Position numbers and translations under genes: made by a program. A stretch of DNA of 64,000 nt, from NCBI GenBank assembly GCA_965178295.1, contig CBCXTT010000003.1, positions 24,114 through 88,113 of the forward strand. The letters run 5' to 3'. This document shows, piece by piece, positions 1,311 to 41,433 of this stretch. The notes under the pieces were generated by a model. That model searched no databases. It saw only the letters and a program-made list of their open reading frames with translations, and was not told where the DNA came from. How positions within the stretch are numbered: position 1 is the stretch's first letter; each line of letters opens with the position of its first letter. The DNA is from Alphaproteobacteria bacterium. Lineage in GTDB: Bacteria > Pseudomonadota > Alphaproteobacteria > UBA7879.

Positions 1311-1876
1311 TTATGATTTTTTAGGTGGTGACGATGGTTTTGCATCCCCACCTGCTGCAGCACTACTTCCTGCTGGTGCAGCCCCAATATTAAGGGACTT
1401 CTTCAATTGATTTTGCGTGTCTGTGTTGGACAGCACATCTGTAAGTAACGTGTCCAAAGTATCGTTTCCATCTAATTTTGTCATCAAATCATTGAGCTGT
1501 GTGCGCATCTGGTAGAGCTTATTCATTGCAGGGATTTTCTTGATCACGTTTATAGGATCAAAATCATCAATGCTTTGGAATTCGAGCAACAAATTAAGTT
1601 GCGTATCGTCATCTGTTAATTTGTTGTCCACTTTGAATGCGAGGCGTGGCCGTTGTTTTGCCATAATAACATTAAAATTATCACGATCAATTTCAGCAAA
1701 TTTACGTTTTTTTACGGAGTCCATCGGGTTGTCAGGATCGCGATCCCCTGAAAGGTCTGAAATGACACCTACGACAAAGGGTAATTCTTTCATTTCAATT
1801 GCATCACCAATCTCTACATCATAAGTGATGTGTACACGTGGTGGACGGACTTTGTCCAGTAAGTGTTGAGTCTCCA
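1311..1876 (-). CDS. tssB: Type VI secretion sheath small subunit TssB/VipA
   Basis: The ORF track gives 1311..1898 from a GTG. The family-typical start METQHLLDKVRPPRVHITYDVEIGDAIEMKELPFVVGVISDLSG is at the ATG (complement of 1874-1876), preceded by AGGGAG. It lies immediately upstream of tssC as expected. The C-terminus carries an extra Ala/Gly/Ser/Pro-rich tail. Confidence 0.85.
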
Positions 1877-2174
1877 TTTTGATAACTCCCTGTTGCACAC
1901 TTGTTATTAACTTAACTTAACTTAAAACAAGGATGGCATGTTTTTTTTTACTTGTCAAAGGGGGAAGTGGAAGATTTTTTTATAAAAGGTAGGGATAACA
2001 GATAGAACGCTACAGCTATTGTTTAAAATACATATATTCCAAATAATTACATTTGCTCTATTAGGGAAACATATATGCAAAAAAGTATGCTGTGCGTTCT
2101 TCTATCCTTTTCATTTTTAACCTACCGGGTTACAATAGCATGTTGACCAATATATAGCTTGATGAGAGACCGAG

Positions 2175-2837
2175 ATGGGCATACGTTATCCAGAATTTGT
2201 AGAGAATCCAGAAAATCGCTGTCCAGTGATTTTGTTACTTGATACATCCGCATCCATGGCCGGTGATCCTATAATGGCGTTAAATGCAGGGCTTGCAAAT
2301 TTTAAATTTGATGTCGAACACGATGAATTAGCGCTGCTGAGGGTAGAGGTTGCAATTATAACGTTTGGGACAGAGGTGTCTATACTGCAAGATTTTACCA
2401 CGATTGATAACTTTACAGCACCCCAGTTGGACGCCGAGGGTAAAACACCCCTCGGCCACGCTTTGAAAACAGGGCTGGCGCTACTTGAGAAGCGCAAAAA
2501 AATCTATCGTGAGGTGGGTGTGCAGTATTATAGGCCATGGATATTTTTGATTACAGACGGCGCGCCCACAGACGTATGGGAGCAAGCTGCAACCAATATT
2601 CATCAAGCTGAAGCAGAGAATAAACTGAGTTTTTTTACGATTGCTGTTGAGGGTGCGGATATGGAGATATTGCAGCAGGTGGCACCACCGTCACGCCCAC
2701 CGTTTACGCTTCGAGATCTGGCCTTTGATGCCTTGTTTCGCTGGCTATCGGCATCGGTTCGACGTGTTTCTACGGGGACAGTTGGGGGTGATATGGTGGC
2801 CTTGCCAGCAGTTTCAAGCTGGGCTGTGGCACGCTGA
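2175..2837 (+). CDS. Free-standing von Willebrand factor A (vWA) domain protein, TerY-like, cytoplasmic
   Basis: MIDAS motif LLLDTSASM (DxSxS) plus downstream ITFGT and LITDG elements. No TM or signal peptide. First gene of a plus-strand cluster divergent from tssB. Confidence 0.8.
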   Translation: MGIRYPEFVENPENRCPVILLLDTSASMAGDPIMALNAGLANFKFDVEHDELALLRVEVAIITFGTEVSILQDFTTIDNFTAPQLDAEGKTPLGHALKTGLALLEKRKKIYREVGVQYYRPWIFLITDGAPTDVWEQAATNIHQAEAENKLSFFTIAVEGADMEILQQVAPPSRPPFTLRDLAFDALFRWLSASVRRVSTGTVGGDMVALPAVSSWAVAR

Positions 2838-2851: not shown

Positions 2852-3568
2852 GTGTGGTATATTGGGCATAGTGTGTCGGGAAAGAAAAGAGCACCAGGCA
2901 CTTGTCAAGATGTGTTAAGAGTCATGACCTGTGACCAACAAGTGGTTGCGGTATTATCTGACGGCGCAGGGAGCGCGGCACATGGTGGATTGGGTGCAAA
3001 AGTTGTAGTGCAGGCGGCTTTCTCATTCCTTCTAGGCCAAAAAATGCCAGGCCTACCATTGTGTGAGATGGCCGATGACTTGATTGCGCATGTCCGACAG
3101 ATCTTAATGGAAAACGCACGCAGTGTTCAAGTGCCAATATATGCACTTGATGCAACAATCCTCGTCCTTGTGGCAAGTCCGTTTGGCTATCAGGTGTTGC
3201 AAGTCGGGGATGGATTTATTGTGATTCAAAGTCAGGGAGAGATTGAGCGCATTGGAGCACCGCAAAAGGGTGAATATGCTAATGAGACCGTTTTTATTAC
3301 AGAAGATGGTGCGCAACCTGCGCTTTATGATAGTAAAGTGCCCGTACACTACTGGGCAATATCTAGCGATGGTCTGGAGCCAGTTGCAATTGAGGCAAGC
3401 GCTGGAACACCCCATGCGGCTTTCTTTCGACCGTTTTGGGAGTATTTAGACACAACGCCCGATATTGAGGAGGCAAACCAGGAGTTGCATAGATTTTTAA
3501 CATCCAGCCCTCTTCAGTCACGGATCCACGATGATGTATCTCTAGCGATAGGACATTGGCATGCATAA
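2852..3568 (+). CDS. PP2C-family Ser/Thr protein phosphatase (PppA/TagG-like)
   Basis: AVLSDGAGSAAHGGLGAKVV and VGDGFIV motifs typical of bacterial PP2C (SpoIIE-like) phosphatases. GTG start 15 nt after the vWA stop. The 3' end overlaps the next gene by 8 nt. Confidence 0.8.
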   Translation: MWYIGHSVSGKKRAPGTCQDVLRVMTCDQQVVAVLSDGAGSAAHGGLGAKVVVQAAFSFLLGQKMPGLPLCEMADDLIAHVRQILMENARSVQVPIYALDATILVLVASPFGYQVLQVGDGFIVIQSQGEIERIGAPQKGEYANETVFITEDGAQPALYDSKVPVHYWAISSDGLEPVAIEASAGTPHAAFFRPFWEYLDTTPDIEEANQELHRFLTSSPLQSRIHDDVSLAIGHWHA

Positions 3569-6353
3569 GGTATATAAAGCATCGGGTAGTGCTATTGTGC
3601 TCAAGGCAATTCTTGCGCGTGGAGGCGAAGGAGAAATTTGGCAGACGGATAACCCAGACGTTGTAACAAAGATATATCATGCGCAAGAGGCGATGCCGCT
3701 GGAGAAACTGGAGACCATGATTGCATCACCCCCCCATGATCCAACAATGGAGGCTCATCATGTCTCGATCTCATGGCCGCAGGAAGTGATATATGATGTG
3801 AATCAAGTGCCCATTGGTTTTTTGATGCCACGTGTGTCTGGCTCTCTAACGCTCAGCAACATTTACAACCCTAAGTTGCGACGGAACAAGGCGCCTGGGT
3901 TTAATTTTTATTACCTGCATACAGCGGCCCATAATATTGCGGCGATTATGGATTCTCTGCATGCACGTGGATATGTTCTGGGCGATGTTACGACAGAAAA
4001 CTTTCTTGTAAATGATCGGGCTTTGTGCGCCCTAAGCGATACTGATTCTATGCAAGTTCCGCATGGTAATAAAGTCTTTCGGTGTACAGTGGGATCCGAA
4101 GGCTTTACCCCACCAGAGCTTATCGGACAAGATTTTTATGCAATTGATCGAACGGCATATCACGACCGCTTTGGTTTGGCTATTCTTATACATCTTCTGC
4201 TTTTGGGCAGACATCCCTTTACGGGAACATGGCCTGCAGGGGAGGAACCCCTGTCTCTGGATCAGGCGATTAAAAATGGAATATGGCCTTATGCTACGGG
4301 AAAGAGACTGCAACCATCCATGCTTTCTGTTTCGTTAGATGTGATAGCGCCTCCGTTAAAAGCAGCATTCTTGAGCGCATTTAATGGAGAACCGGAATTG
4401 CGACCGACAGCGGCTGATTGGAAAAAGGTTCTGAGTGCTGCACGGGATGATTTGAGCGCTTGCGCGAAAAATAGCAATCATTATTACGATCACCATTTGA
4501 ATACATGCCCTTGGTGCGCGAGAGCGGAGGAAATGGGCCTTGATATTTATTCTGCTGTTTCAAATGACGTCATTGAGCACAAGGTGCGCTTTAACAAAGC
4601 TGTAAAAACAGACGATCAACGCTTGATGACACAATTATGGCAAGCGCATGAAACACTTCGTGCAGATGCTGCGTATCTGAATTTACGCGGGAGAATGCAA
4701 AAAATTGATAGAGATGTTCGGCTTTTGGATCGATTTAAAGCAGCTTGTCAGGAAGGCGTAGACGATGCAGCGCTGTTCCAGATGATTGCAGATAATCCTC
4801 GTCTTGAGACGCTCTCTGCATTTCTCCATGAAAAAATAAATGGGCAATCATTGGCTGTATTTTTTCAACAGCTTGATGCTCGCCGGAAGGCAATCGTGCG
4901 TGCTCAAGATGCAATTCGCCTAGCTGATCAATATTTTTCAGCAGTCTCTGCAACGCCGGCTCATGAGCAAGCCATCATTGATACTTCTAGGGCGTTAGAA
5001 GATATTCTGGAGACGCAAGGGCGTGCTGTTCCAGGTAATATGAGCGCGCGCTGGGCTATAGCTAAACAGCGCTTAGAATCGTGGAGAATATTTCAGCATG
5101 CACTGGATAAAAATGATTTCACGCTGCATAAAACATGGGTCGTACACGCAGAAAAACTCAAAGGTTTTCTGTTTCCAGATGACGTTCGCATGCACTTAGA
5201 GCAGGTGCAAAAACAAGATAAAATTCATGCAATATTTATGTCTCAGATTCGCAAGCAACCTTATGAAGATGCAGCTTTGATTGCGCTATGGGCCCAATAT
5301 CCCGCATTTCAAAAGACAATCTTTGCAAAAGAAAAGGTGTTTCGCGATAGATCTATTGAAGATTTTGTGTCGGATGCACAGAAACGACAGTTTCTGCTGC
5401 CTCTTTTAGATCACGCTTATGCGACATCTGATGTACACGGTATTTTGAATGCCTGGGATAAAAATGTGTGCGGGTATCATCCAGACTTCAAAAAATTTAA
5501 AAGCTATGCAGAAAAGTCTTTTGATGCTCAAAAGCGCTGGCATAAAGTACGGCGCTACATCTTAGAAGATGATCATGTGCAGATTGTGACGTTGTGGCAT
5601 GATAGTTTTACTACTCAGGCTATGCGAGAAGGATTGGGGCATAAGGTGCGTAATAGCTTTCGCCATCAAGAAACGCGCCGTTCCTCTTTTTCGTCTATGT
5701 ATTTTCCAAGAATGCGATTGCTTGAAAATTATATAGATGTATTGTTTCCCTGGCCTGTTTTGATCGATAGAACAGAAAAACGTGTGCGCACATCCTATGT
5801 TGTGGGCGTGGCTCAATCAACGTATGCAACCCCAGATCTAGAGAGGTGCAAGAGTGCGCTGAATATGCGTTATATATCGGCGGATAAATGTGGAGAAATT
5901 GGCCGATTAATATTACCTAGAACAATGCCAAAACCCCATATATTTATATGGGCGGCAGATTTTACAGCAGGGGGGGTGAGGCCTATAGGTTCTCACTTAT
6001 ATGTAACACACAATCAGAACTTGCCAACGATATCATATGATATTTTCGTTCAATCCTTTTGGAAAAGGGGCCGTACAACCATTGGCGTGCATATAGATGT
6101 AAATCAGGATATGCATTTACCATCGTTAGACGTTGTTGCAACGCATGGTCGCTTCCCTATTTTTCAGGATCCAGAAGCCATTGTTCTTGCTACTCTGCCA
6201 CCGTGTTGTTTAAAGATGGGGGGGCGTCACAAGATTATGATTTCCTCGAAACATCCGATCGAACGTGATATGATATTTCGCCTACAGTCACAGGAGAAAT
6301 TTTTCATGGACAACGTGACATTCGTTTACAATAGGCCACAGAAATATGCATAA
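3561..6353 (+). CDS. Divergent Hanks-type Ser/Thr protein kinase (PpkA/TagE-like) with ~600-aa C-terminal region of unknown function
   Basis: Recognisable kinase subdomains in the N-terminal ~330 aa: GGEGEIW (G-loop), VTKIY (Lys), HARGYVLGDVTTENFLV (catalytic loop D...N), LSDTDS (DFG-like), GFTPPEL (APE-like), DRFGLAILIHLLLLG. Residues ~330-930 are helical with a CPWC pair and no family I can assign. No TM segment. Overlaps the PP2C stop in an ATGCATAA arrangement. Confidence 0.75.
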   Translation: MHKVYKASGSAIVLKAILARGGEGEIWQTDNPDVVTKIYHAQEAMPLEKLETMIASPPHDPTMEAHHVSISWPQEVIYDVNQVPIGFLMPRVSGSLTLSNIYNPKLRRNKAPGFNFYYLHTAAHNIAAIMDSLHARGYVLGDVTTENFLVNDRALCALSDTDSMQVPHGNKVFRCTVGSEGFTPPELIGQDFYAIDRTAYHDRFGLAILIHLLLLGRHPFTGTWPAGEEPLSLDQAIKNGIWPYATGKRLQPSMLSVSLDVIAPPLKAAFLSAFNGEPELRPTAADWKKVLSAARDDLSACAKNSNHYYDHHLNTCPWCARAEEMGLDIYSAVSNDVIEHKVRFNKAVKTDDQRLMTQLWQAHETLRADAAYLNLRGRMQKIDRDVRLLDRFKAACQEGVDDAALFQMIADNPRLETLSAFLHEKINGQSLAVFFQQLDARRKAIVRAQDAIRLADQYFSAVSATPAHEQAIIDTSRALEDILETQGRAVPGNMSARWAIAKQRLESWRIFQHALDKNDFTLHKTWVVHAEKLKGFLFPDDVRMHLEQVQKQDKIHAIFMSQIRKQPYEDAALIALWAQYPAFQKTIFAKEKVFRDRSIEDFVSDAQKRQFLLPLLDHAYATSDVHGILNAWDKNVCGYHPDFKKFKSYAEKSFDAQKRWHKVRRYILEDDHVQIVTLWHDSFTTQAMREGLGHKVRNSFRHQETRRSSFSSMYFPRMRLLENYIDVLFPWPVLIDRTEKRVRTSYVVGVAQSTYATPDLERCKSALNMRYISADKCGEIGRLILPRTMPKPHIFIWAADFTAGGVRPIGSHLYVTHNQNLPTISYDIFVQSFWKRGRTTIGVHIDVNQDMHLPSLDVVATHGRFPIFQDPEAIVLATLPPCCLKMGGRHKIMISSKHPIERDMIFRLQSQEKFFMDNVTFVYNRPQKYA

Positions 6354-7362
6354 TATATTTTCTAAATCATTGTGTCCGTACTGCTACAAGTCTTTTTATC
6401 CGTGGGAAAAAATGTATCGATGTCAGGCCCTGACGCAGGTATGCAAGCCTGTTGAAGATACAGTATATCATCGTCATTTTGGTACAAAAAAAATCATGGG
6501 GCATGTTGTGACACCTTCTATTCGAGGGTTTTCTGATTTGATGCGCTTTTTAAGCAAGGAGTTGGCAACACGTTGTACGAGCTGTGCATCTTTGGTGACA
6601 CAACCAATTTGTCCAGGGTGTCATGGGCATTTGCCTAAGCGACAAGGTAAGACACCTGTCGTACCTATTTTGCTTGCAGGAGCCAGTATTAGCGCTCTTA
6701 AAACGTATCGTTCAGCGCTTCTGCATCAACTCCAGGCGGCTGAAGGGCATATAGCTGGTATGATTGTTGAAGATTTAGCTGAGGGTGACGGCATTATTAT
6801 CTCTTTTGAGATTGCTCAAGGGCGGCGGACCAGGCTACCATGTTTTATCTCCACATTTCCGATGGTAACATGGAAGGACTTGGCGCGTCTCCCTCGTGCG
6901 TTTGATATAAACAAGTTATCTGGTGTGATCGCGGTATTGTCTGGAAAGGCGCTAGGTGATATAGGTCATCAGTATGCGATGACAAGCCTAAAGGCGTTAC
7001 TGGATGTGGCGGATGAGGAAAGAAGCTTTTGGCAGAAAACGCCACTTGCTATTGCCCTAGATGACATGGAAAAGTGGCAGGCTTGTGTTCCTGGCGGGAG
7101 TGTGCTGTGGGGGCGAGGTCAACATACCAAAGGGTATGACGTACAAGATGGATCCAGCGTTTCTGCTGAAGTGCGTGCCTGTTTTGGCTATTGGGCTGGG
7201 TTAAATGTACTGCAGTTTTTAAAGAAAAATTTTAAAACTTATAGTTTTTTTGGTATTTCAAAAGAGCGATATAGTACGGGCCGTGTTGCGCCTTATGCTC
7301 GTGTTGAGGATCCTTATTTTTGGCTGCTCTATCGGCAAAAAATACTTGAAAAAATGCTTTAG
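6346..7362 (+). CDS. Cys-rich double zinc-ribbon protein of unknown function (338 aa)
   Basis: N-terminus has CPYC...(~10 aa)...C...C and then C..C...CPGC, i.e. two zinc-ribbon-like Cys4 clusters in the first ~95 aa. The remainder is unassignable. Start overlaps the kinase stop by 8 nt (ATGCATAA), implying translational coupling. Confidence 0.6.
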   Translation: MHNIFSKSLCPYCYKSFYPWEKMYRCQALTQVCKPVEDTVYHRHFGTKKIMGHVVTPSIRGFSDLMRFLSKELATRCTSCASLVTQPICPGCHGHLPKRQGKTPVVPILLAGASISALKTYRSALLHQLQAAEGHIAGMIVEDLAEGDGIIISFEIAQGRRTRLPCFISTFPMVTWKDLARLPRAFDINKLSGVIAVLSGKALGDIGHQYAMTSLKALLDVADEERSFWQKTPLAIALDDMEKWQACVPGGSVLWGRGQHTKGYDVQDGSSVSAEVRACFGYWAGLNVLQFLKKNFKTYSFFGISKERYSTGRVAPYARVEDPYFWLLYRQKILEKML

Positions 7363-7457: not shown

Positions 7458-8303
7458 ATGATTGTTGGTCTGGTCGTCTTGACAGGCATTATTGTGGCTC
7501 TATCAGTATCTCTCTGGCTTAAACAGGATCACCATCAAGCTGCGCTCACACCGTATACAGTGTATTTTTCTGAGACCGTATCAGGCCTGCCTATTGGCAG
7601 TGCTGTAAAATATCGCGGCATTCGCGTGGGGTCAATTTCTGATATTCATATTCCTAGGAAAAATTCAGAATCCATTGCTGTAAGTGTGATGATTGATAAA
7701 AACACACCTGTTGGAATGGGGAGAAGAGCTTCTTTGCAAATGGCAGGCATTACAGGCGAGTCATATCTGGAGATTAGCGGCGCTGTCCATGATGACGGGC
7801 CTGTATCGCCTCCTGCTGGTGAGTCTGTTCCTGTTATTCCATCTGAAGAATCTTCTATTCAAAAAATTGTATCGACAACCCCTGCGCTTCTAACTCATGC
7901 AGATCAGCTGATTCAGAGAACCGCTACAGTAGTCTCGGTCGAAAACCGTGCAAAATTCTCAAAAATACTTGAAAATGTGCAAGATATTACACAGGCACTT
8001 TCAGATAGTCGGAGTGATTATAGCAATCTGATGTCAAATTTTCGTGTGATCAGTGAAGAAATGCGTACAACACTTCAGTCAATAAATGGCGCTATGGAGA
8101 GCCTAAATTTTGCAGGGAAAAATATTGATCATTTTGTTCAGGATGTGCGCCCCCATATTGCCAGTTTTGCAGAGAATGAGTTGCCTAACTTTGTCCTTTT
8201 AACAGATAAGCTTATGGCAACATTAGGTGATCTTAGGGACGTTTTGAGAACGATCGAGCCTAAGATAGAGTATTTTACCAGATGCGGGCGAAAGGAGTTA
8301 TAA
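7458..8303 (+). CDS. MCE/MlaD-family protein (single MCE domain, N-terminal TM anchor, C-terminal helical region)
   Basis: N-terminal TM MIVGLVVLTGIIVALSVSLWL. MCE domain signature YTVYFSETVSGLPIGSAVKYRGIRVGSISDI...AGITGESYLEISGA. Confidence 0.8.
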   Translation: MIVGLVVLTGIIVALSVSLWLKQDHHQAALTPYTVYFSETVSGLPIGSAVKYRGIRVGSISDIHIPRKNSESIAVSVMIDKNTPVGMGRRASLQMAGITGESYLEISGAVHDDGPVSPPAGESVPVIPSEESSIQKIVSTTPALLTHADQLIQRTATVVSVENRAKFSKILENVQDITQALSDSRSDYSNLMSNFRVISEEMRTTLQSINGAMESLNFAGKNIDHFVQDVRPHIASFAENELPNFVLLTDKLMATLGDLRDVLRTIEPKIEYFTRCGRKEL

Positions 8304-8309
8304 GCTTAT

Positions 8310-8924
8310 ATGAGATGGGTTTTACTATGCTGCCTACCCTTTTTCTTGACTGGGTGCGTTCATATCTTTCCGGAGCAGCCCTCTGGGGTGAAAACAATCG
8401 TCATTCGAGCGGAAGGATGTTCAGCGGTTGAAGGACCAGAGGTAGAATCGCAGTTAATTGTTGAACGTCCTACCACAAGCTCGGAGTTGGATAAAAATAT
8501 CATTGCTGTTATGGGTGAGACAGATACACTTCTGTATATTTCGGATACAGTTTTGTCCGATGACTTGACCGAGGTAATTGAGCGCGCGACAATTGAGGCT
8601 TTTTTGGAGAGTAAAAAAATAAAAGGTGTTGGAGGAAATGGGAGCGGTATTAGCGCAGATTATATTTTGCTGAGCGATATCGACTCTTTTGGTCTATACG
8701 TACCACATAAAGGCGCAACACCAGAAGCACGCTTTGAGATGGTAGGCCAGTTGGTGGATGTTAAAACGCGGAAAGTTGTTTCTAAAAAACGCTTCAGTGC
8801 GATGGTTCCCGTACCAGCAAAGACAGTATCTGTAGTTGCAAACGCACTGAATGATGTTGTTTCGCACGTGCTCAGGGATGTTTTGACCTGGGTGCTTTCT
8901 GCAGGGCATGTGGCGCTAAAATAA
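8310..8924 (+). CDS. Lipoprotein, likely ABC-transport auxiliary component (DUF330/PqiC/YmbA-like)
   Basis: Signal peptide with lipobox FFLTGC. ~200 aa, immediately downstream of the MlaD-like gene, as is typical for DUF330 partners of MCE proteins. Confidence 0.6.
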   Translation: MRWVLLCCLPFFLTGCVHIFPEQPSGVKTIVIRAEGCSAVEGPEVESQLIVERPTTSSELDKNIIAVMGETDTLLYISDTVLSDDLTEVIERATIEAFLESKKIKGVGGNGSGISADYILLSDIDSFGLYVPHKGATPEARFEMVGQLVDVKTRKVVSKKRFSAMVPVPAKTVSVVANALNDVVSHVLRDVLTWVLSAGHVALK

Positions 8925-9340
8925 CACACGAAGTGGCGTAAGATATCTTGCCTGTATTGCATCATGTTTTGCAGGAAGCGCGAATCGAGATATATATGTC
9001 GAGTAGCGCATGCTCGATACCCCCAGTATGGCGAGCAATCATCGTGCTGTTGACTCTTGCGTAAAACAACAATATGTATTGCATTTTCCTTGAGTTTTTT
9101 CTGACCTGAAGGAGCAATCCTACGTGTCTTCATGAGATAGAGTTCTGCTGTACAGTCTGTAATTTATTTAATTTTTCAGTCGAGAGTGTGCGTGAAGACG
9201 CTCTTGGCGCAACAAAAATTTGCGATAGTGCGTCAAGTAACTGCATCAGATAGAAATATGTGAGTGATGCCTTTCCCAGGATACACTGACATCATACGGT
9301 AGCTATTGCATGCACATTGAGGACGTTTTTTCCATATCCT

Positions 9341-10174
9341 TCACTGTTTGTTGATGTGGCGATGATAACAATGGGGGCAGGAAAAATTTTCTTCGTATAG
9401 AACACTTGATTCATCTTCTTTTGTGAGGGGGGCGCGACACCTGTAACACTGCTTCATGCCGGTCTCCTGGAGTTTGAAATTCAGAGCGACACGCTTGTCA
9501 AAAACAAAGCAATCTCCTTCATAGTGTGCGCCACCACATTTTTCAAAGTATTTTAAAATGCCTCCCTCTAGTTGTACTACATTATGGAATCCATTCTGTT
9601 GCATATATGGCGCAGCTTTTTCACAACGAATGCCGCCAGTGCAAAACGTGACAATAGGGATTGTTGGACTAATGTTGCGTAAGTTTTGTATTGCATCTGC
9701 AAATTCTTTGAAATGGGTCATCTGAAAATGAATCGAATTTTTAAAGGTGCCGACACGGACTTCATAGTCATTTCGTGTATCTATGATAATAAAGTTTTTT
9801 CCAGAGTCGTACCAACTCTTGAGTGCCTCTGGCGTGATGTAGGGAGCTGGGTTGGATGCTGGGTCAAGGGTGCGCTGGCTAAACGGAATGGTTTCCCGCT
9901 TAATCCGTACAAGCATGCGGGTAAAAGGCTGGGCGCTGCTGTAGCTCTCTTTCCCTTCTAAATGCTCAAGTCCATCTATTTGATGCACACACTCTAGAAA
10001 GGCGTAGACATTTTCTTTGTAACCTGCAATAAAGAAGTTAATGCCTTCAGGAGCTAAGAGCACGGTACCTTTTAAATTCTCAGAACGAGCTTTGGACAGT
10101 AGTGCTTCTTTATGCGCTTTAAGTCCATTAAGGTGTAAAAATTTATAAGTCGATATATTTAGATATTGTTGCAT
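9341..10174 (-). CDS. trhO: Rhodanese-domain tRNA U34 hydroxylase TrhO (YceA/UPF0176)
   Basis: N-terminal UPF0176 region followed by a rhodanese domain with active-site CTGGIRCEK and a C-terminal Cys pair (CYRC...CPHC). Confidence 0.85.
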   Translation of the reverse strand: MQQYLNISTYKFLHLNGLKAHKEALLSKARSENLKGTVLLAPEGINFFIAGYKENVYAFLECVHQIDGLEHLEGKESYSSAQPFTRMLVRIKRETIPFSQRTLDPASNPAPYITPEALKSWYDSGKNFIIIDTRNDYEVRVGTFKNSIHFQMTHFKEFADAIQNLRNISPTIPIVTFCTGGIRCEKAAPYMQQNGFHNVVQLEGGILKYFEKCGGAHYEGDCFVFDKRVALNFKLQETGMKQCYRCRAPLTKEDESSVLYEENFSCPHCYHRHINKQ

Positions 10175-10245
10175 TTGTTCAACATTTCCCTTGAATTTAC
10201 AGCATTATATACTATAGTTTACTGTAGTTCACAAGACGTTTGTGA

Positions 10246-10554
10246 ATGCAAAAGGCGCTTTTATGCTACTACCTAAAAAGATCATATTGTAATCAGATAG
10301 CGAAGGAGGCGCGTCGTCTACTTGAATCAGCGATTAAAGGATTCCAATTTGATGTCAAAGAGCCCGATATGTTTTATCGATCGTACGATCTGTTTTTTCA
10401 GGGCATGACAGAAATTATGACACATGATTCACAAAAGATTGCACCTGATGTAATGGCAGCGGAGACGATACCTTCTTGTCATGATAACAGTATTCACAGT
10501 CTCTTGATTATCGTCTCGTCTTGTGTTTCTGAGGGCATTTTAGCTGGAATATGA
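10246..10554 (+). CDS. Hypothetical small protein (102 aa); may be non-coding
   Basis: ORF only. No family recognised. Sits in the trhO-lptC intergenic region. Confidence 0.2.
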   Translation: MQKALLCYYLKRSYCNQIAKEARRLLESAIKGFQFDVKEPDMFYRSYDLFFQGMTEIMTHDSQKIAPDVMAAETIPSCHDNSIHSLLIIVSSCVSEGILAGI

Positions 10555-10586
10555 TTATGAATGAAGGTATCTATGCTTAACATCGA

Positions 10587-11261
10587 ATGAATGATCTTCA
10601 TAAAAAAAAGCAGCATATTGCATCGCAAAAAGCTTTGTCGCGCAAGCGCTCTGTTCATTTAGCGTCAGTTTTTATTACTTTGAGCGCTGTCTTTGTTGCT
10701 ATTGTTGTATCTTGGCCGCATATTGTTCGTTTCTTTGCAGAGACGGATGATGCCGCTGCCCTCAATGCTTTCGAGCAAAATGTTATTACAGCGCAGTCTA
10801 AGGCTTTATCGCGTGTGAAACCGAGCGAAGTGCATGGAGCAAAGTTTTTTCATTCTGGGCCAGATAAAACGCTTATTACAATAAAATCTGAGCGAGTTGC
10901 GCGTCCCGAAGATGATGGGTCTGTGCATTTAGAACATGTGTCGGGGAGTGCGCAGCTTACGGATGGGAGTTCTGTTTTTATCACGGCAGATAAAGGGGAA
11001 GTGGTGCCGGATACAGCAGGCCACTTCTCGCTTGAGGGCAGTGTCAATATTATGCAAGAGCAGGGCCATGAATTGCTCACAGAGATGGCCAATATTGACT
11101 TTCCGTCACAAAAAATTGTCGTCCCTAATCAAATTGACATCATCTCGCCGATGGGAAAAATGAAAGGAGAAAGTGGTGTGATTGATTATAAAAATCATAC
11201 ATTGGCAATGGCTGGAAAATCTAAGATCATATTTAATAGAGAGAAAGGGAGCGGTCATTGA
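10587..11261 (+). CDS. lptC: LPS export protein LptC (membrane-anchored)
   Basis: 224 aa with an N-terminal TM anchor (LASVFITLSAVFVAIVV). Immediately upstream of lptA with a 4-nt overlap, consistent with the lptCAB arrangement. Confidence 0.7.
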   Translation: MNDLHKKKQHIASQKALSRKRSVHLASVFITLSAVFVAIVVSWPHIVRFFAETDDAAALNAFEQNVITAQSKALSRVKPSEVHGAKFFHSGPDKTLITIKSERVARPEDDGSVHLEHVSGSAQLTDGSSVFITADKGEVVPDTAGHFSLEGSVNIMQEQGHELLTEMANIDFPSQKIVVPNQIDIISPMGKMKGESGVIDYKNHTLAMAGKSKIIFNREKGSGH

Positions 11262-12067
11262 GCAAGATAATAGTGTTTGCATTTCTCTCTATGCTCTCAT
11301 GCTGTGTGGCATGTGAAACGATTGTCACATGTGACAATGGCCTCACAGTGTATGAAGCAGAAAATTATTTTACAGCTCACGGTAATGTGTCTGTAGAGCA
11401 TGAGCATATTAAAGCACGTGCGGATAGGGGGCGGGGCGTTGTCAGGCAGAATAAGAAAATGCGGACGGTAGAGACATTGAGTCTTGATGGGCACTTAGAG
11501 GTTGAATCGAACGGCCTCCATATTGCAGCAGACAAAGGTATATATGACCTACTACACAATAGGTTGACGCTGCACGGTAATGTGATTCGTGTTAACGCTC
11601 AGGATATAAGGGCGGAGACTCATGGGGAGGTGGTATATTTACCCAATAGATCTCTATTGAAAGGTCGGCAGCGTACAATATTGAAAAAAGATGACGCAAT
11701 TTTTTCTGGTGATAAATTTGATGTTGTATTTTTAAAGCCGGACTCTCGTGTGCAGAAACAAGCCATAGAAGATGTATCCTACATATATGTTCGCGGTGAT
11801 TTGACATTTTTTTGTGGTGAGGCTATTATGTTTGCGTCTCATGCTTTATACGATGTTCCATCAGACAAGATTTATGCGTTTGGTGAGGTGCGAGTGAGTC
11901 TAGAGACACACCAACTGGAGGCCCCGTTTGTTTTAATGGATCGATCCCAAGGGACAGTTGAGTTAGGCGACACTATTCCACAGGGTATGAAGGCACAATA
12001 TCCATATGTAAGCGCGTTGCATGCAGATTCCATGCATGAGCACGATGGTATTCGGGTGTTATTTTAA
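11258..12067 (+). CDS. lptA: LPS export periplasmic protein LptA (OstA-like)
   Basis: Signal peptide. OstA-like beta-jellyroll repeats (GNV motifs: AHGNVSVEH, LHGNVIRVN, AFGEVRV). Position between lptC and lptB. Confidence 0.8.
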   Translation: MSKIIVFAFLSMLSCCVACETIVTCDNGLTVYEAENYFTAHGNVSVEHEHIKARADRGRGVVRQNKKMRTVETLSLDGHLEVESNGLHIAADKGIYDLLHNRLTLHGNVIRVNAQDIRAETHGEVVYLPNRSLLKGRQRTILKKDDAIFSGDKFDVVFLKPDSRVQKQAIEDVSYIYVRGDLTFFCGEAIMFASHALYDVPSDKIYAFGEVRVSLETHQLEAPFVLMDRSQGTVELGDTIPQGMKAQYPYVSALHADSMHEHDGIRVLF

Positions 12068-12077
12068 ATAGAGGGCT

Positions 12078-12815
12078 ATGTTGATGATCAATAATGCACT
12101 GGCTTTAGAGCATATTGGGAAGTCATTTAAAGATCGGCCAGTGCTGCGTGATGTGAGCCTGTGCGTGCAACCAGGCGAAGTTGTAGGGCTCTTGGGACCG
12201 AATGGGGCGGGTAAAACAACCTGTTTCTATATCATGTCGGGTTTGATAAAACCGGACTATGGAAAAATAATTCTTTACGGTGAAGATATTTCGCGCCTGC
12301 CACTTTACAGACGATCAAGGCTCGGTATTGGGTATTTGCCTCAAGAAACATCTGTTTTTCGAGGACTGACGGTTGAGGATAATCTTCAGGCTGTTTTAGA
12401 GATTATGGAACCAGTACCAGAGAAGCGTGAATCGATGCTAGAAGATCTGTTGGGTGAGTTTTCCATCAGTCACTTGCGCCATACATCCTCTATTGCATTG
12501 TCTGGTGGAGAGCGGCGACGGCTAGAAATTGCTCGGGCATTGGCTCTTCAGCCCAAGTTTATTATGCTTGACGAGCCCTTAGCGGGCATTGATCCTATTG
12601 CAATCGAGGATATTCGTGAGTTAATCGGGCGCTTAAAGATTCATGATATTGGAGTATTAATTACAGATCATAATGTGCGAGATACGTTAAGTGTTGTGGA
12701 TCGCGCATACATTTTAAATGACGGCGTTGTTCTGGCTGAAGGCTCTCCGCAATCTATTGTGGGACACAAAGAGGTACGGCGTGTCTATTTGGGCGAGAGC
12801 TTTACCTCTTTTTAA
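12078..12815 (+). CDS. lptB: LPS export ABC transporter ATPase LptB
   Basis: Walker A GPNGAGKTT, ABC signature LSGGERRRLEIARAL, Walker B IMLDEP. Family-typical length (245 aa). Confidence 0.9.
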   Translation: MLMINNALALEHIGKSFKDRPVLRDVSLCVQPGEVVGLLGPNGAGKTTCFYIMSGLIKPDYGKIILYGEDISRLPLYRRSRLGIGYLPQETSVFRGLTVEDNLQAVLEIMEPVPEKRESMLEDLLGEFSISHLRHTSSIALSGGERRRLEIARALALQPKFIMLDEPLAGIDPIAIEDIRELIGRLKIHDIGVLITDHNVRDTLSVVDRAYILNDGVVLAEGSPQSIVGHKEVRRVYLGESFTSF

Positions 12816-12912
12816 GTTTTTTTCTCTTTTATATTGAGCACACCTATTGCCTTTATTGAATAATGTTTGTATAAGAGATTAACTTCTGTTGTAGCCTAAT
12901 AGGAAGATACCA

Positions 12913-13476
12913 TTGTTTATTAAGACCGCTGATACACCAAATCCAAATACGATGCAGTTTTTTCCGGGACGTGTTCTGGTAGAAACAGGCCGTGGTGTAG
13001 ATTTTCCCCGGCGTGAAGCAGCGTTGAATTGCCCGTTGGCCTTAAAGCTATTTTCTGTTGAAGGCGTGGAAGAGATTTTTATTGGCCATGACTTTATCAG
13101 TGTGACCAAGACAGAAACATGGGATTGGTACGTTCTAAAACCACTGGTTTTAGGCTCTATAATGGATATTCTAGTGTTGGATCGGCCACTTTTCAAAGAT
13201 GCGGGAGAAGTAGTATCCTCGCCCCCTGTTGAAGACGCAGATGAAGATCCTCTAATTCTGCAGATAAAAGATTTGTTGGACACACGTATTCGGCCATCTG
13301 TTGCTATGGACGGAGGAGACATTACCTTTGTCCGTTTTGAAGATGGAATTGTGTATTTAGAGATGAAAGGGGCGTGTTCGGGATGTCCTAGCTCTGCTGT
13401 GACACTGAAATCAGGTATTGAAAATATGCTGAAGCATTATGTGCCTGAGGTTGTAGGAGTTGAATCTATAGAATAA
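12913..13476 (+). CDS. Nfu/NifU-like Fe-S cluster scaffold protein (Nfu_N domain plus C-terminal NifU CxxC domain)
   Basis: TTG start. MFIKTADTPNPNTMQFFPG matches the Nfu N-terminal domain. C-terminal GACSGCPSS motif (CxxC) of the NifU-like domain. Confidence 0.8.
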   Translation: MFIKTADTPNPNTMQFFPGRVLVETGRGVDFPRREAALNCPLALKLFSVEGVEEIFIGHDFISVTKTETWDWYVLKPLVLGSIMDILVLDRPLFKDAGEVVSSPPVEDADEDPLILQIKDLLDTRIRPSVAMDGGDITFVRFEDGIVYLEMKGACSGCPSSAVTLKSGIENMLKHYVPEVVGVESIE

Positions 13477-13526
13477 TTTTCTATTTTATATGTTGCGACG
13501 AGTGATAGGGGAGGGGATGAAAGTGT

Positions 13527-14138
13527 ATGACAACACTGGCTGTCTATAAGATAAAATTTTTTTATGGCGCTCTTGCACTTGTTTCACTGACTTGCATTTT
13601 AGTGAAAATGGACTATACGATGGCACCACAAGTGGTATCGCCATTCCGAAATATCGATATTATTGTAGTTAAGGCTGCGAAGAAACCTCACCTATTTCAG
13701 GGTTATAATGATCGCTGCGATCCGACTCAGCAGGTTTGTTCGGCAACAGAAGAAGATATCGATACGCTGGCACGTACGATTTGGGCTGAAGCGCGTGGCG
13801 ATGGTTATGAAGGCATGCGTGCTGTTGCTGAAGTGATCGTGAACAGAGCGCTAGATCCTAAGCGTTGGCCATCTTCTATCTCCGAGGTCGCAAAGCAGAA
13901 CCGCCAGTTTTCTTGCTGGAATAAGCGTGATCCAAATCGTCGTAAACTTTTGAATGTAACAGAATCTGATAAAGATTTTTGCTTGGCTATGGAAAGCGCA
14001 CGGGATGCCGTAGAAGGGAACAGCCCTATTCGGCGGAGCAATATAACACACTTTCACACACACCGTGTGGCTCCGCAGTGGGCTCAAGGTCAGACGCCTG
14101 ACATGACCATCGGCGGACATGTTTTTTACACGCTGTAA
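13527..14138 (+). CDS. Cell-wall hydrolase of the SleB/CwlJ (Hydrolase_2) family
   Basis: LARTIWAEARGDGYEGMRAVAEVIVNRA...QFSCWN... motifs. N-terminal hydrophobic segment. Confidence 0.8.
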   Translation: MTTLAVYKIKFFYGALALVSLTCILVKMDYTMAPQVVSPFRNIDIIVVKAAKKPHLFQGYNDRCDPTQQVCSATEEDIDTLARTIWAEARGDGYEGMRAVAEVIVNRALDPKRWPSSISEVAKQNRQFSCWNKRDPNRRKLLNVTESDKDFCLAMESARDAVEGNSPIRRSNITHFHTHRVAPQWAQGQTPDMTIGGHVFYTL

Positions 14139-15362
14139 ATAGGTCCTGTTTGAACGGGTGACTCGTTAGACGTTTGTCTCCATCTAACATACAGTAATTA
14201 AAATCTCTTCCTAGAGCTTTACTTCAATCACATTTTGCAATATTTTTCTCTATATTGCGCAACAGATTCTCTGTCCATTGTGTCTTTTGTTCACCCAATC
14301 TATCCGTCGGGATGAATGATAATAACACTGTAGCATATGTTGCGTTATCTGCAACTTTTGCAATAGGGGGAGCATGAATCTCTTTTTCAGTATTTCTGGC
14401 GCAGGCGATGCAAGAATCATCATATGATTATAGGTGATAGATTTTATCTCTGCACCTGGTTTCTAGCAACTATGCTAGAATTTTTTTTGATACATATTAC
14501 ACAAAGGGGATATTTTTTCTAGACACCATACGTACGCTACGTGCGCTCAGTTGTCAGGACATTTTTTCAGAGGGGCGTGATACCAGGATCGTGGTCAGTA
14601 TACTGATAGTGTGTCCACATACTCCGCATAACCGGCGCGCACTTATATGCAAAGTTATCGAAGGTATCTGACTACGCTGTCTGTGATAGGTGCTATGAAT
14701 AGGACCGCATGTTTGCAGATACCCATTCTGTTTTTTTTGGCGTATCGCATAATGTAGTTACAAAATAAACATGAGATTATCACTGTTTTTTCCCTGTTGA
14801 CGCCCATCAATGCACTTGCAGTGTATGCCTGACCGAAAGTTAAGCAATGTTTGACAAAAGGCAAAGTGGTATTATTTCTGGTTTACAGCACATATTTGTG
14901 TGATAGTACCTGACTAGACTATATGGAGACTCTTCGGCGAACAATCCCTTGCGTTTGTGCACAGGCTCAGATGCAAATCAGTTGATTGTTTGTGAAACAA
15001 TGAATAAATCCCATGAGGATAGCATCTGTATATTGGAACGCAGGGAGAAAGATGGGGGGATGTCTTGAGAACGGGTGTATGCACCCCCGGGCCTTGGAGC
15101 GGTGAGTATGGCGCATATCTTTTATGCCTCATACGGCAATCAGGAGGGAGAAGCACCACGTGCGAAGAAATTTTGATACCCAAGATCCCCTGCATCATTG
15201 CCTATACTAGGTATAGATATTCTGTGTTTCTCCATTCTATTATATGGATATAAATTGATTGTTATTTTCCTGGAATTTCATTAATAATTGTAGCATTAAT
15301 GAGGAGATTGCATGAAGAATCTCCACTGTTCCCATATTTGCAAGAAGGTTTTGATATAACTT

Positions 15363-32400: not shown

Positions 32401-33257
<857 letters not shown>

Positions 33258-33265
33258 GTATAACA

Positions 33266-35341
33266 ATGTCAAAACAAACATCATTATCTTTCTACCGTAA
33301 TATCGGTATTATGGCCCATATTGATGCGGGGAAAACAACAACAACTGAGCGTGTTTTATATTACACAGGCCGTTCCCATAAAATTGGTGAGGTGCATGAC
33401 GGTGCGGCTACAATGGACTGGATGGCGCAAGAGCAAGAGCGCGGTATTACAATAACATCTGCAGCAACGACATGTTTTTGGAATGGTCATCGGATTAATA
33501 TTATTGACACACCTGGACACGTTGATTTTACAATTGAAGTTGAGCGTGCATTACGGGTTTTGGATGGTGCCGTTGCTGTTTTTGATAGCGTTGCTGGTGT
33601 CGAGCCTCAGTCAGAAACTGTATGGCGCCAAGCAGATAAATATCGTGTCCCGCGCATTTGTTTTGTGAACAAGATGGACCGTACAGGTGCTGATTTCTAT
33701 CGTTGTGTGGAGATGATGGTTGATCGTTTAGGCGCATCGCCTTTGGTCGTTCATCTTCCTATTGGTTCTGAGGCCGACTTTGAAGGTGTGATAGATCTAG
33801 TATCTATGAAGGCAATGATTTGGAAAGAAGAATCCCTAGGTGCTAAATATGAAATTGTAGATATTCCGGAAGCTAATAAAGACCACGCAAATGAGTATAG
33901 AGAGAAATTAGTAGAGTGTGCTGTTGAGCAAGATGACCAGATTATGGAAGCCTACTTGAGTGGTGCAGAAGTTACAGAAGAGCAATTGAAGATGTGCCTG
34001 CGTCGGGGCGTGTTAAATTTATCTTTTGTTCCCGTTCTTTGCGGAACAGCTTTTAAAAACAAGGGTATTCAGCCCTTGCTGGATGCTGTGATTGACTTTT
34101 TGCCATCCCCATTGGATGTGGGTGTTGTTGAAGGAAGCGATATAACAGGTGAACAAGAAATGGTGCGTGAGCCGGATGCTAAAGAACCGCTTTCTGGACT
34201 AGCTTTTAAAATTATGACGGACCCCTTTGTCGGTACACTAACTTTTGTTCGCTTGTACTCAGGTACACTTGAAACAGGATCCACAATTTATAATTCTGTC
34301 AAAGAAAAAAAGGAACGCGTTGGGCGCATGTTGTTGATGCATGCAAATAGCCGAGAAGACATAAAAATAGCGCATGCTGGAGATATCGTGGCGATTTGTG
34401 GCCTTAAAGATACCACCACAGGTGACACACTTTGTGATTCGCTTAAACCAATTATCCTTGAGCGCATGGAATTTCCTGATCCTGTTATTGAAGTCGCTGT
34501 TGAGCCTAAGACAAAATCTGACCAAGAGAAAATGGGCGTTGCACTCAGCCGCTTAGCGGCAGAAGATCCTTCGTTCCGAGTGAGCATGGATGCAGAATCT
34601 GGACAAACTGTTATTAAAGGGATGGGCGAGCTGCATTTGGAAATATTGGTGGATCGAATGAAACGCGAATTCAAGGTTGAGGCGAATGTTGGGGCACCAC
34701 AGGTGGCCTATCGCGAGACAATAACAAAGTCCGCAAATATTGACTATATTCACAAGAAGCAAAGCGGAGGTGCAGGACAATTTGCGCGTGTTAAGTTGTT
34801 GCTTGAACCAATTAAACCGGGTGAATCATATGAATTTATCAACAAAATTGTTGGTGGTAACGTACCAAAAGAATATATTCCGGGCGTTGAAAAAGGGCTG
34901 CTTTCGGCAATGCAGAGCGGCCCCATTGCTGGATTCCCTGTGATTGACCTTCAGGTGACACTTTTTGATGGCGCCTATCACGATGTTGACTCTAGTGCGC
35001 TTGCCTTTGAAATTGCCGCACGTGCGGCCTTCCGCGAGGGTGTTCAAAAGGCTTCGCCAAAACTTCTTGAGCCAATGATGAAGGTTGAAGTTGTGACGCC
35101 TGAGGAATACATGGGTGATATTATTGGAGATCTGAATAGCCGACGTGGTCAGGTGAGTGGTATGGATCAGCGAGGCAATGCACGTGTAATTACAGCGCTG
35201 GTTCCATTGGCAAAAATGTTTGGTTATGTGAATACGCTGCGTTCTATGAGCCAGGGACGCGCCCAATTTACGATGCAATTTGCACATTACGAACAGGTGC
35301 CTCAAGCCGTTGCAGACGAAGTTCGGGAAAAAATTTCTTGA
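33266..35341 (+). CDS. fusA: Elongation factor G
   Basis: [20 protein letters not shown]..., DTPGHVDF. 691 aa. Confidence 0.95.
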
Positions 35342-35387
35342 AGTTAGATTGAATTTTCGTGCATAGGACATAAGGAGAAGAGGAAAG

Positions 35388-36581
35388 ATGGGAAAGGAAA
35401 AATTTGAGAGGAATAAGCCACACTGTAATATCGGGACGATTGGGCATGTAGATCATGGAAAAACATCCCTGACAGCAGCGATTACAAAGGTATTATCTGA
35501 AAAAGGTGGGGCAGAGTTTAAAGAATATGGAGATATTGATGGGGCTCCAGAAGAGCGCGCACGTGGAATTACGATTTCAACTGCACACGTAGAGTACGAA
35601 ACAGACAACCGTCACTATGCACACGTTGATTGCCCAGGACACGCGGACTATGTGAAAAACATGATTACAGGTGCTGCACAAATGGATGGTGCCATTTTGG
35701 TTGTGTCTGCTGCAGATGGTCCAATGCCACAAACACGTGAACATATTTTGTTGGCGCGTCAGGTTGGTGTTCCAGCAATCACAGTATTTTTGAATAAGGT
35801 GGACCAAGTTGATGATCCTGAGATTTTGGAATTGGTAGAAATGGAAGTGCGTGAGTTGCTGTCCAGCTATGACTTTCCAGGTGACGATATTCCCATCATT
35901 TATGGGTCTGCTTTGAACGCCCTTGAAGGCAACGATGCTGAAAAGAGTGGAGCACAAGCGATTACAGAGTTGATGGAAGCAGTGGATCGATATATTCCAC
36001 AGCCAGAGCGTGAAGTAGACAAGCCATTTTTGATGCCCATTGAGGACGTATTTTCAATTTCCGGTCGCGGTACAGTTGTAACAGGTCGTATTGAAAGCGG
36101 CGTGATTAATGTTGGTTCAGAAGTAGAGATTGTTGGAATAAAAGATACAGAAAAGACAACCGTAACCGGTGTTGAGATGTTTCGTAAATTGCTTGACCGC
36201 GGTGAAGCAGGCGACAACATTGGGGCGTTATTGCGTGGAACAAAGCGTGAAGATGTTGAACGTGGCCAAGTGTTAGCGGCGCCAGGGACCATTACGCCAC
36301 ATACAGAGTTTGAATGTGAGTGCTATATTTTAAAAAAAGAAGAAGGTGGACGACATACACCATTCTTCAGCAACTATCGTCCGCAATTTTACTTTCGGAC
36401 GACAGACGTAACAGGAACGATTGAACTGCCGGACGGTGTTGAGATGGTTATGCCAGGAGATAACATTGCGATGAAGGTAAGGTTGATTGCTCCCATTGCG
36501 ATGAATGACGGTTTGCGTTTTGCGATACGTGAAGGTGGTCGTACAGTTGGAGCTGGTGTGGTCGCGAAGATCATAAAATAG
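35388..36581 (+). CDS. tuf: Elongation factor Tu
   Basis: [14 protein letters not shown]..., [16 protein letters not shown]. 397 aa. Confidence 0.95.
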
Positions 36582-36663
36582 CTTGCAAGTTCCCATCTCT
36601 GAGGGTATACAGACTGGGTAGGTTTGTTAAAAAGCGTTATATAAAAAGTAAAGAAGAAGTGTT

Positions 36664-36972: not shown

Positions 36973-36985
36973 GGAGTTTTGAAAA

Positions 36986-37627: not shown

Positions 37628-37640
37628 GTGGTTTTAGAAA

Positions 37641-38264: not shown

Positions 38265-38270
38265 GATTGA

Positions 38271-38585: not shown

Positions 38586-38589
38586 AACC

Positions 38590-39429: not shown

Positions 39430-39445
39430 AAAGGAGACACTGTAA

Positions 39446-39724: not shown

Positions 39725-39726
39725 TA

Positions 39727-41423: not shown

Positions 41424-41433
41424 AGGTTAAAAA

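Follow-up and report, generated by a model that had tools for sequence, protein, structure and literature searches.

The window analysed here is a stretch of 64,000 nucleotides (nt) of an Alphaproteobacteria bacterium (assembly GCA_965178295.1, contig CBCXTT010000003.1, forward strand positions 24,114 to 88,113). It carries a four-gene cassette encoding a stand-alone TerY-like vWA protein, a PP2C-type Ser/Thr phosphatase, a kinase with a long C-terminal extension and a Cys-rich protein referred to below as the partner, and this cassette lies beside tssB, a gene of the type VI secretion system (T6SS). The C-terminal region of the kinase is the subject of this study. A preliminary description of the locus had pointed out that the protein runs for ~600 residues past the kinase domain, and the segment that it delimited, 4550–6353, indeed corresponds to residues 331–930. 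It had regarded this segment as helical, Trp/His-rich and assignable to no family, and as a likely sensor, scaffold or effector. The features of the locus are compiled in the table below.

Features of the cassette and of the kinase protein in the window (positions are those of the window; residue numbers are those of the encoded protein)
Feature	Position (nt)	Strand	Description
tssB/vipA, small T6SS sheath subunit	1311..1898	-	Pfam T6SS_VipA 2.2e-51; NCBIfam TIGR03358 2.1e-50
Stand-alone TerY-like vWA protein	2175..2837	+	Pfam VWA 2.9e-9; metal-ion-dependent adhesion site (MIDAS) DxSxS in LLLDTSASMAG
PP2C-type Ser/Thr phosphatase	2852..3568	+	Pfam PP2C_2 9.2e-35
Kinase open reading frame (ORF)	3561..6353	+	930 amino acids (aa); third gene of the four-gene cassette
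Kinase domain, residues 1–295	3561..4445	+	Pfam Pkinase E 2e-6, below the gathering score
CHCC zinc knuckle, residues 296–335	4446..4565	+	C301, H307, C316, W318, C319; includes 'CPWC'
All-alpha array, residues 336–705	4566..5675	+	about seven divergent ~50-residue units
Array units			A 350–399, B 400–461, C 462–516, D 517–566, E 567–622, F 623–669, G 670–705
Beta-sandwich 1, residues 706–820	5676..6020	+	opens with a conserved 'h-x-F/W-x-W-P' strand; has 'IWPA' (W797)
Beta-sandwich 2, residues 821–925, with C-terminus and stop	6021..6353	+	AlphaFold2 model
Partner	6346..7362	+	338 aa, Cys-rich; two zinc ribbons and a DO-GTPase-like domain

The kinase signal was confined to the N-terminal third of the protein, where Pfam Pkinase matched residues 118–227 with 27.8 bits; in relatives the same model reached 1.1e-13. 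All PDB sequence matches of the 930-aa protein were kinases and fell within residues ~99–245, and in PADLOC only two generic models for kinases, mad6 and PD-T4-6, matched. The family-invariant residues K37, D142, D160/D162 and TPPE186 are all kept in the window, and N147 is nearly invariant. Residue 144 (nt 3990–3992, ACG) is Thr in 'GDVTTEN', whereas the family carries a nearly invariant Lys in 'GD[IVL]K[TP][DE]N'; the kinase domain of the family member P0002, 79% identical to that of the window, keeps the Lys. Because T144 occupies the place of the catalytic-loop Lys in HRDxK, the activity of the window kinase may be altered. Outside the kinase core, no hydrophobic span was seen on reading the protein sequence. 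Residues 331–930, searched within the whole protein and as fragments, matched no family in Pfam, NCBIfam, PADLOC or among PDB sequences, so that the absence of a family assignment holds for these resources but not beyond them, as known relatives of the zinc knuckle and of the beta tail were found (see below). The Trp and His enrichment is present but only mild: Trp makes up 1.83% of the region against 1.05% of the other long ORFs in the window (p=0.054), and His 4.17% against 2.69% (p=0.023). Several of the Trp residues occupy conserved repeated positions, with W632 and W731 invariant and W679 nearly invariant among 16 C-terminal sequences, and W360 and W577 invariant among 12 full-length members.

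The size of the family was determined by searching a HMMER profile of the C-terminal region against 1.84 billion cluster representatives, which yielded 31 proteins at E≤1e-3, 22 of them at E≤1e-10; a word-indexed protein search with the same region found only itself and one relative of 55% identity. Most members are 890–950 aa long and have the same layout, in which the kinase and zinc knuckle are followed by a variable number of helical repeats and the two sandwiches. The preliminary description had suggested looking for stand-alone homologues of the region; the members without a kinase match were mostly short pieces, although the beta module does occur on other, actinobacterial proteins. Among the members lacking a kinase match, the 1125-aa P0021 gave helical matches only, and P0022 begins just ahead of the zinc knuckle. 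The full-length relatives come from metagenome-assembled genomes (MAGs) labelled Alphaproteobacteria, from one Holosporaceae MAG and from MAGs labelled Rhizobiaceae, Rhizobium and Verrucomicrobiales. Locus L004 on the one hand and L007 and L105 on the other share their ORF layout and score almost identically with the profiles, with MAG labels of Verrucomicrobiales vs Holosporaceae UBA7879, which suggests that a public contig was mis-binned or mislabelled. Sixteen family sequences were aligned and residues 296–930 were modelled with AlphaFold2, and 80 genomic and 80 metagenomic loci around kinase relatives (numbered with L) were collected and their ORFs classified with local profiles. By the alignment, the C-terminal region evolves much faster than the kinase domain, as an interaction module would (mean pairwise identity 51% in the kinase, 38% in the knuckle, 23% in the helices and 21–22% in the sandwiches).

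The CPWC pair mentioned in the preliminary description is real (residues 316–319, nt 4506–4517), but lies just upstream of the segment to which it had been attributed. It forms half of an invariant C301-x5-H307-x8-C316-x-W-C319 zinc knuckle of two short hairpins, and the five residues C301, H307, C316, W318 and C319 that the hairpins bear are among only seven invariant columns of the 16-sequence alignment. In the window and the first 83 collected loci, the knuckle profile matched 81 ORFs, the same number as the kinase-domain query. Judged by this residue pattern, the knuckle is the C-terminal zinc ribbon already described for TerY-P-type kinases. The E. coli genes yegL/yegK/yegI are an example of a TerY-P triad. 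Such a triad consists of a TerY-like vWA protein, a PP2C phosphatase and a Ser/Thr kinase with a C-terminally fused zinc ribbon (Anantharaman et al. 2012, per PMC11090510) and has been hypothesised to act as a metal-sensing phosphorylation switch (PMC11090510), and related triads in which an OB fold replaces the ribbon protect against phage (Gao et al. 2020, per PMC11090510).

The window shares with TerY-P triads the three genes in one operon, the MIDAS of the vWA protein and the kinase directly followed by the CHCC knuckle, and ~140 further triads with the same kinase and zinc chassis were seen in cyanobacteria and other groups. It differs from them in the ~600 residues of repeats and two sandwiches beyond the zinc ribbon and in the fourth, coupled gene, and no Ter genes were found among the profile-searched proteins near the cassette. 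The triad of vWA, PP2C and kinase with knuckle was present in most of the collected loci, which are mostly cyanobacterial, and the vWA gene was kept upstream of the kinase in nearly all of them. In the cyanobacterial loci L008–L081, the kinase and zinc chassis ends in WD40, TPR, FGE-sulfatase, DUF1036, pilin-like, 3-keto-disaccharide hydrolase-like or coiled-coil modules, a pattern in which the signalling core stays constant and the binding domains are exchanged.

Downstream of the knuckle, the helical character proposed in the preliminary description was observed for residues ~336–705 but not for residues ~706–925, which were all-beta according to DSSP on the AlphaFold2 model of residues 296–930 (mean pLDDT, the predicted local distance difference test score, 87.4). 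The helical part modelled alone reached a pLDDT of 90.9 and a predicted template modelling (TM) score of 0.70. Each unit of the array comprises a short helix, usually with the pattern '..h-h-x-h-W..', and then a helix of ~25–30 residues. BLAST self-comparison of the C-terminal region did not detect the repeats, and comparison of the units at the profile level was therefore needed. The hhalign results gave 97.8% for units B and E (E 1.3e-12), 95.4% for A and D, 94.1% for D and E, 93.0% for A and B and 92.9% for A and F, whereas all 49 of the 49 comparisons with reversed units stayed at or below 8.2%. The array length varies within the family, being shortened in P0011, P0014, P0020, P0022 and P0023, and the helical profile matched two or three times in P0013, P0018, P0019, P0021, P0025, P0028 and P0030.

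These data bear on a rival account of the region, namely that it consists of generic TPR/SEL1/HAT-like repeats with Ig-like spacers that serve oligomerisation only, with an accidental link to the neighbouring gene, an account that we consider very improbable. The array resembles such repeats in its alpha-hairpin build, and the best fold matches of the helical part were TPR and HAT proteins; Ig-like sandwiches are, moreover, common as spacers. However, Foldseek against the PDB gave no significant match for the helical part, the best being the TPR protein P58IPK (E=0.14), followed by the HAT repeats of SART3 and by 14-3-3, and the TPR/HAT matches had E values of 0.14–1 with TM scores of about 0.1–0.2. 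No TPR, SEL1 or HAT profile of Pfam matched any of the 32 family members or any sub-fragments, whereas the real TPRs of the cyanobacterial paralogues were detected at E 1e-14. The TPR/SEL1 match that the preliminary description had named as the outcome that would make the region unremarkable was thus not observed. The units also differ in size, with ~50 residues (a short Trp helix and a ~28-residue helix) vs 34–36. The Trp-marked array therefore appears to be new, with no relative found by profile or fold search.

The all-beta remainder, which corrects the helical reading of the whole region, folds in the model as two beta sandwiches. In sandwich 1, W731 is followed by a nearly invariant P732. 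The Foldseek search with the whole model against the PDB found only weak matches to tandem FN3/Ig-type sandwiches, all with E≥1.5e-3, including NCAM FN3 1-2 (match probability 0.98–0.99), sDscam FNIII, integrin calf domains, TEP1 and transglutaminase C-terminal barrels, and in BFVD, viral FN3-domain proteins matched the tail similarly weakly. By these fold matches, the tail probably consists of two FN3/Ig-like sandwiches.

Relatives of this tail were encountered outside the kinase family. In two high-GC metagenomic loci, L141 and L157, the genes for vWA, PP2C and a short knuckle-bearing kinase are followed by those for a ClpB-like AAA+ protein and an HSP70-like protein, after which come DO-GTPase2 and GAP1. 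The gene for the HSP70-like protein lies directly upstream of DO-GTPase2, and the C-terminal ~200 residues of this protein match the tail profiles. The hmmsearch with the sandwich 2 profile gave 1.1e-5 and 4.1e-5 on these C-termini (29 sequences), and hhalign of both sandwiches against them gave 93.2% (E 3e-7, 160 columns including the 'LLLLWEWP' strand), vs 0.1% for the reversed control. Two unassigned ORFs of 467 and 596 aa that lie between kinase and GTPase in L141/L157, as well as an ORF of 1024 aa upstream of the vWA gene in L157, were compared with the helical array, and no relationship to it was seen. A search seeded with these HSP70-like tails retrieved ten proteins, of which the named ones belong to Streptomyces or Kitasatospora and several are marked partial; two of the ten could be placed on contigs, and both are encoded directly upstream of DO-GTPase2, GAP1 (Pfam GAP1-N2, GAP1-M, GAP1-C) and a further DO-GTPase2. 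Aligned with 12 actinobacterial tails, the kinase tails gave 96.1% (E 3.4e-9, 176 columns), vs 0.2% when reversed. The module has no Pfam model in either the kinase group or the actinobacterial group. This profile evidence makes the beta tail a homologue of the C-terminal module borne by proteins whose genes lie just upstream of a DO-GTPase gene.

The partner proved to belong to the same kind of GTPase. It bears two zinc ribbons (C10/C13/C26/C33 and C77/C80/C89/C92/H93), and it aligned over 315 columns with zinc-ribbon proteins carrying Pfam DO-GTPase2/DO-GTPase1 (hhalign 99.5%, E 1.6e-22) and matched the first DO-GTPase of a Streptomyces operon in phmmer (E 6.9e-19). The window partner itself lies under the Pfam thresholds; for the DO-GTPase2 gathering score of 27, the proteins of L078 (27.9 bits) and L141 (39.8 bits) pass and that of L157 (26.6) is just under. 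The P-loop of the window partner is destroyed, reading GASISALKT vs GAPNSGKT in relatives (pattern GxxxxGKT), and there is no DxxGE either; it is equally degenerate in L001, L002, L003, L005 and L007, whereas Walker A is intact in the distant cassettes L009 (GSAKSGKS) and L078 (GPPGAGKT). Because its P-loop is destroyed, the window partner is assigned as a pseudo-GTPase, that is, a predicted catalytically dead DO-GTPase homologue. The L078 locus, from Oryzibacter oryziterrae, encodes at 7947–15087 the longest version of the kinase found in a named genome (1257 aa, with the repeat profile matching twice), the GTPase and then a 732-aa ORF without a Pfam match, in a mobile-looking setting with an IS481-type helix-turn-helix gene, TraG/VirD4 and an FtsH-like protease.

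The tail and the partner gene are tightly associated. The partner follows immediately downstream in 11/11 distinct loci in which the kinase matches sandwich 1 and the available DNA extends 1 kb or more downstream (the window, L001, L002, L003, L004/L007, L005, L009, L085, L093, L100 and L132). The exception among tailed kinases is L059, which matches sandwich 2 only and has an IS605-type transposase in the partner's place. Reciprocally, the partner was found in none of the ~66 genome loci that match neither helices nor sandwiches, and in two of the 65 such metagenome loci, L141 and L157, where it lies 5–6 kb downstream within complete DO-GTPase–GAP1 operons; the cyanobacterial kinases with other C-terminal modules have no partner gene. 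This constancy over the 11 assessable loci, together with the recurrence of the link between tail and GTPase in actinobacterial operons whose proteins have a different N-terminal domain, further argues against generic repeats with an accidental neighbour. Within the window, the PP2C/kinase (3561–3568) and kinase/partner (6346–6353) junctions consist of the identical 8-nt overlap ATGCATAA, as a result of which the downstream proteins begin with Met-His and the upstream ones end with Ala and the stop. The identical overlaps suggest translational coupling and possibly stem from a duplicated junction.

Collectively, these results demonstrated that the extension is a non-enzymatic arm composed of a TerY-P zinc ribbon, a repeat rod of variable length and a two-sandwich head, and that the head is a portable module borne on the C-termini of different proteins and always encoded just upstream of a zinc-ribbon DO-GTPase gene. 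Most likely the arm serves as a scaffold or sensor. The explanation that we favour as a whole, and hold to be somewhat better than an even chance, is that of a non-catalytic three-part arm on a TerY-P-type kinase whose tail docks the product of the next gene. The beta tail, possibly with the repeats, would contact the zinc-ribbon pseudo-GTPase produced from the coupled gene, and the repeats may form a rigid spacer or scaffold, a rod that transmits to the kinase or spaces the head from it. The complex of tail and partner could then bind a ligand or a target and determine how active the kinase is or where it resides. Together with the PP2C phosphatase and the vWA protein with its MIDAS, the kinase would constitute a reversible phosphorylation switch. 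All these functional statements are predictions. The favoured explanation is supported by the cyanobacterial kinases, in which WD40, TPR, FGE-sulfatase and further binding modules are attached to the same chassis. Of the roles offered in the preliminary description, sensor or scaffold agrees with the lack of an enzymatic domain, the variable repeats and sandwiches, the fast evolution and the specific neighbour, while nothing points to the catalytic or toxic activity of an effector.

Several observations weigh against this explanation. The resemblance of the tail to FN3 domains is weak, with fold matches at E≥1.5e-3 and low TM scores and no Pfam fn3 match, and the homology with the actinobacterial tails comes from profile–profile scores of 93–96% rather than from a curated family. 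The association of repeats, sandwiches and partner is also imperfect, as L068 and L091 carry helical repeats with neither sandwich nor partner, and L023 and L078 match only the helical profile, yet have the partner; co-occurrence among related genomes, moreover, partly reflects shared descent. Since the GTPase of the window is dead, a GTP switch cannot operate here. Finally, GAP1, the defining co-component of DO-GTPase systems, was not found by phmmer at any locus of the tail family, and the analogy to these systems is therefore incomplete.

DO-GTPase systems have a core of a DO-GTPase, often with one or two N-terminal zinc ribbons, and GAP1 (Kaur, Burroughs, Iyer & Aravind 2020, eLife, PMC7159879); those of the GAP1-N2 kind have an FNIII component with variable parts fused N-terminally, and FNIII domains have been proposed as invader sensors (Kaur et al. 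2020, PMC7159879). A theme of a kinase with zinc ribbon and beta-rich domain, PP2C and vWA has been described as well, and was called restricted to actinobacteria (PMC7159879). The window partner is homologous to the first DO-GTPase of such systems, a protein with two zinc ribbons, and the beta tail, as a relative of the C-terminal module encoded just ahead of that GTPase, may correspond to the FNIII component. The window differs in having no GAP1, no second GTPase and a destroyed Walker A, in the ~370-residue Trp-repeat array between zinc ribbon and beta module, in its fixed position beside tssB and in its hosts, which are Alphaproteobacteria (Holosporales-like MAGs) rather than actinobacteria. 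In the six-frame translated window, phmmer with a Streptomyces GAP1 gave a best E of 1.1, whereas the controls L141 and L157 were matched. The candidate reading of the C-terminal region as a fused GAP1 was rejected, since it had no Pfam GAP1 match and scored 0.2% in hhalign against the protein after DO-GTPase in L082/L083, and no GAP1 lies in the window. The cassette thus combines the descriptions of TerY-P triads and of DO-GTPase systems while departing from both, and has the appearance of a pared-down relative of a predicted conflict system, placed beside a T6SS gene cluster.

Alternatively, the cassette may still be an active anti-phage or anti-invader system of the TerY-P/DO-GTPase kind, in which the FN3-like tail would recognise the invader and the kinase and vWA protein would execute the response. 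The phage defence given by TerY-P-like triads, the proposed invader-sensing role of FNIII domains and the fast evolution of tail and repeats are in keeping with such a function, as are the mobile context of L078 with its intact GTPase, the IS605 element in L059 and the Fic gene in L002. Yet the PADLOC models, built from known defence systems, gave no match at E≤0.1 to the vWA, PP2C and partner proteins, and the cassette lacks both GAP1 and the second GTPase, while its own GTPase is dead. The place beside tssB is, furthermore, fixed on the chromosome across deeply diverged genomes, with no moving among defence islands. Judging by the MAGs, one of which is labelled Holosporaceae, the hosts appear to be Alphaproteobacteria, and if these are reduced-genome symbionts, phage pressure may be low. 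We therefore regard a defence system that is still active as unlikely.

The neighbourhood of the cassette points to another possible output. The divergent neighbour is tssB in the window and in L001, L002, L003, L005, L090 and L091, and in L093 tssB lies within 3 kb on the same strand, so that tssB accompanies the cassette in eight distinct loci although their kinases share only ~30–60% identity with the window protein. In the closest relative, with 55% identity in the C-terminal region, the arrangement is the same, with tssB, tssC, tssE, tssF and tssG on one side. By contrast, none of the cyanobacterial triads, which lack the tail, stands beside tssB. These data are consistent with the arm providing targeting or sensing for a regulator that acts post-translationally on the adjacent T6SS and resembles Thr phosphorylation by PpkA/PppA, in which repeats, sandwiches and pseudo-GTPase would dock on baseplate, sheath or membrane-complex parts or sense a firing cue, and the kinase would phosphorylate a T6SS component. 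We give this proposal some weight but consider it less probable than not. It is compatible with the favoured docking-arm explanation, because it specifies the output, and among the options for that output, T6SS control is the most interesting.

The P. aeruginosa PpkA carries a vWA domain, and kinase, PP2C and vWA are the parts of the PpkA/PppA T6SS checkpoint. The cassette encodes this same domain set of a Hanks-type kinase, PP2C and vWA beside T6SS core genes. The vWA protein of the window is, however, separate and cytoplasmic, its kinase has no transmembrane segment, unlike PpkA, and PpkA has nothing equivalent to the tail and pseudo-GTPase; a Pfam search of the window proteins flanking the cassette matched no FHA domain. 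Of the three marks of the PpkA/PppA/Fha pathway considered, namely T6SS location, a kinase with transmembrane segment and periplasmic domain, and an FHA-domain substrate or adaptor, only the location was found. Holosporales-type symbionts keep their T6SS in small conserved blocks including [tssB-tssC-hcp], and YwqK-like genes accompany vgrG there (PMC8163844), which fits both the position of the cassette and the MORN_2 (YwqK-like) repeat protein gene that lies right behind the partner in L009 (6609–7802) and L023 (11437–12213). The adjacency to tssB could, on the other hand, be inherited synteny in one symbiont lineage. Furthermore, tssB is not adjacent in L004/L007, L009, L023 and L078: the neighbours of L004/L007 and L009 on the sides examined and those upstream of L023 are housekeeping genes, and the context of L078 is mobile (TraG, an IS-like gene).

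Other features were recorded around the cassettes. Downstream of the window cassette, at 7458–8924, an MlaD-domain protein and an ABC-transport auxiliary lipoprotein are encoded; the pair is also present in L001 but was not seen behind the cassette at the remaining family loci for which genes on the downstream side were inspected, and is probably unrelated lipid-transport machinery. In L002, a Fic/DOC-domain gene with a DeoR-like helix-turn-helix lies between the PP2C and kinase genes (6237–7286). Farther along the window, a long run of same-strand ORFs at 32787–47914 includes ORFs of 691 and 397 aa that resemble fusA and tuf by size and order. If these, by size and order only, head a ribosomal-protein gene cluster, the region would be core chromosome and not an island.

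A more far-reaching scenario, which we put forward as speculative and improbable in its entirety, is that a former conflict-system module, joining a TerY-P triad to the FN3-like arm and zinc-ribbon GTPase of a DO-GTPase system, was domesticated in Holosporales-like intracellular alphaproteobacteria as a post-translational trigger of the T6SS. The GTPase would have decayed to an adaptor and GAP1 would have been lost, while the Trp-repeat rod would space the kinase from a head of tail and pseudo-GTPase that reads a host or envelope cue.

The related cassette in alphaproteobacterial MAGs extends the kinase/PP2C/vWA theme that was published as limited to actinobacteria. Its minimal form of four genes, with no GAP1 and a dead GTPase, singles out the pair of tail and zinc-ribbon GTPase as a possible core interaction of DO-GTPase systems, which are otherwise large and purely predicted. 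Two unannotated modules were defined, the Trp-marked ~50-residue repeat and the two-sandwich tail, each of which could become a family model. No regulator of these symbiont T6SS clusters was encountered in one symbiont genome paper (PMC8163844), and the recurrent position of the cassette beside tssB suggests how the T6SS of such symbionts might be controlled.

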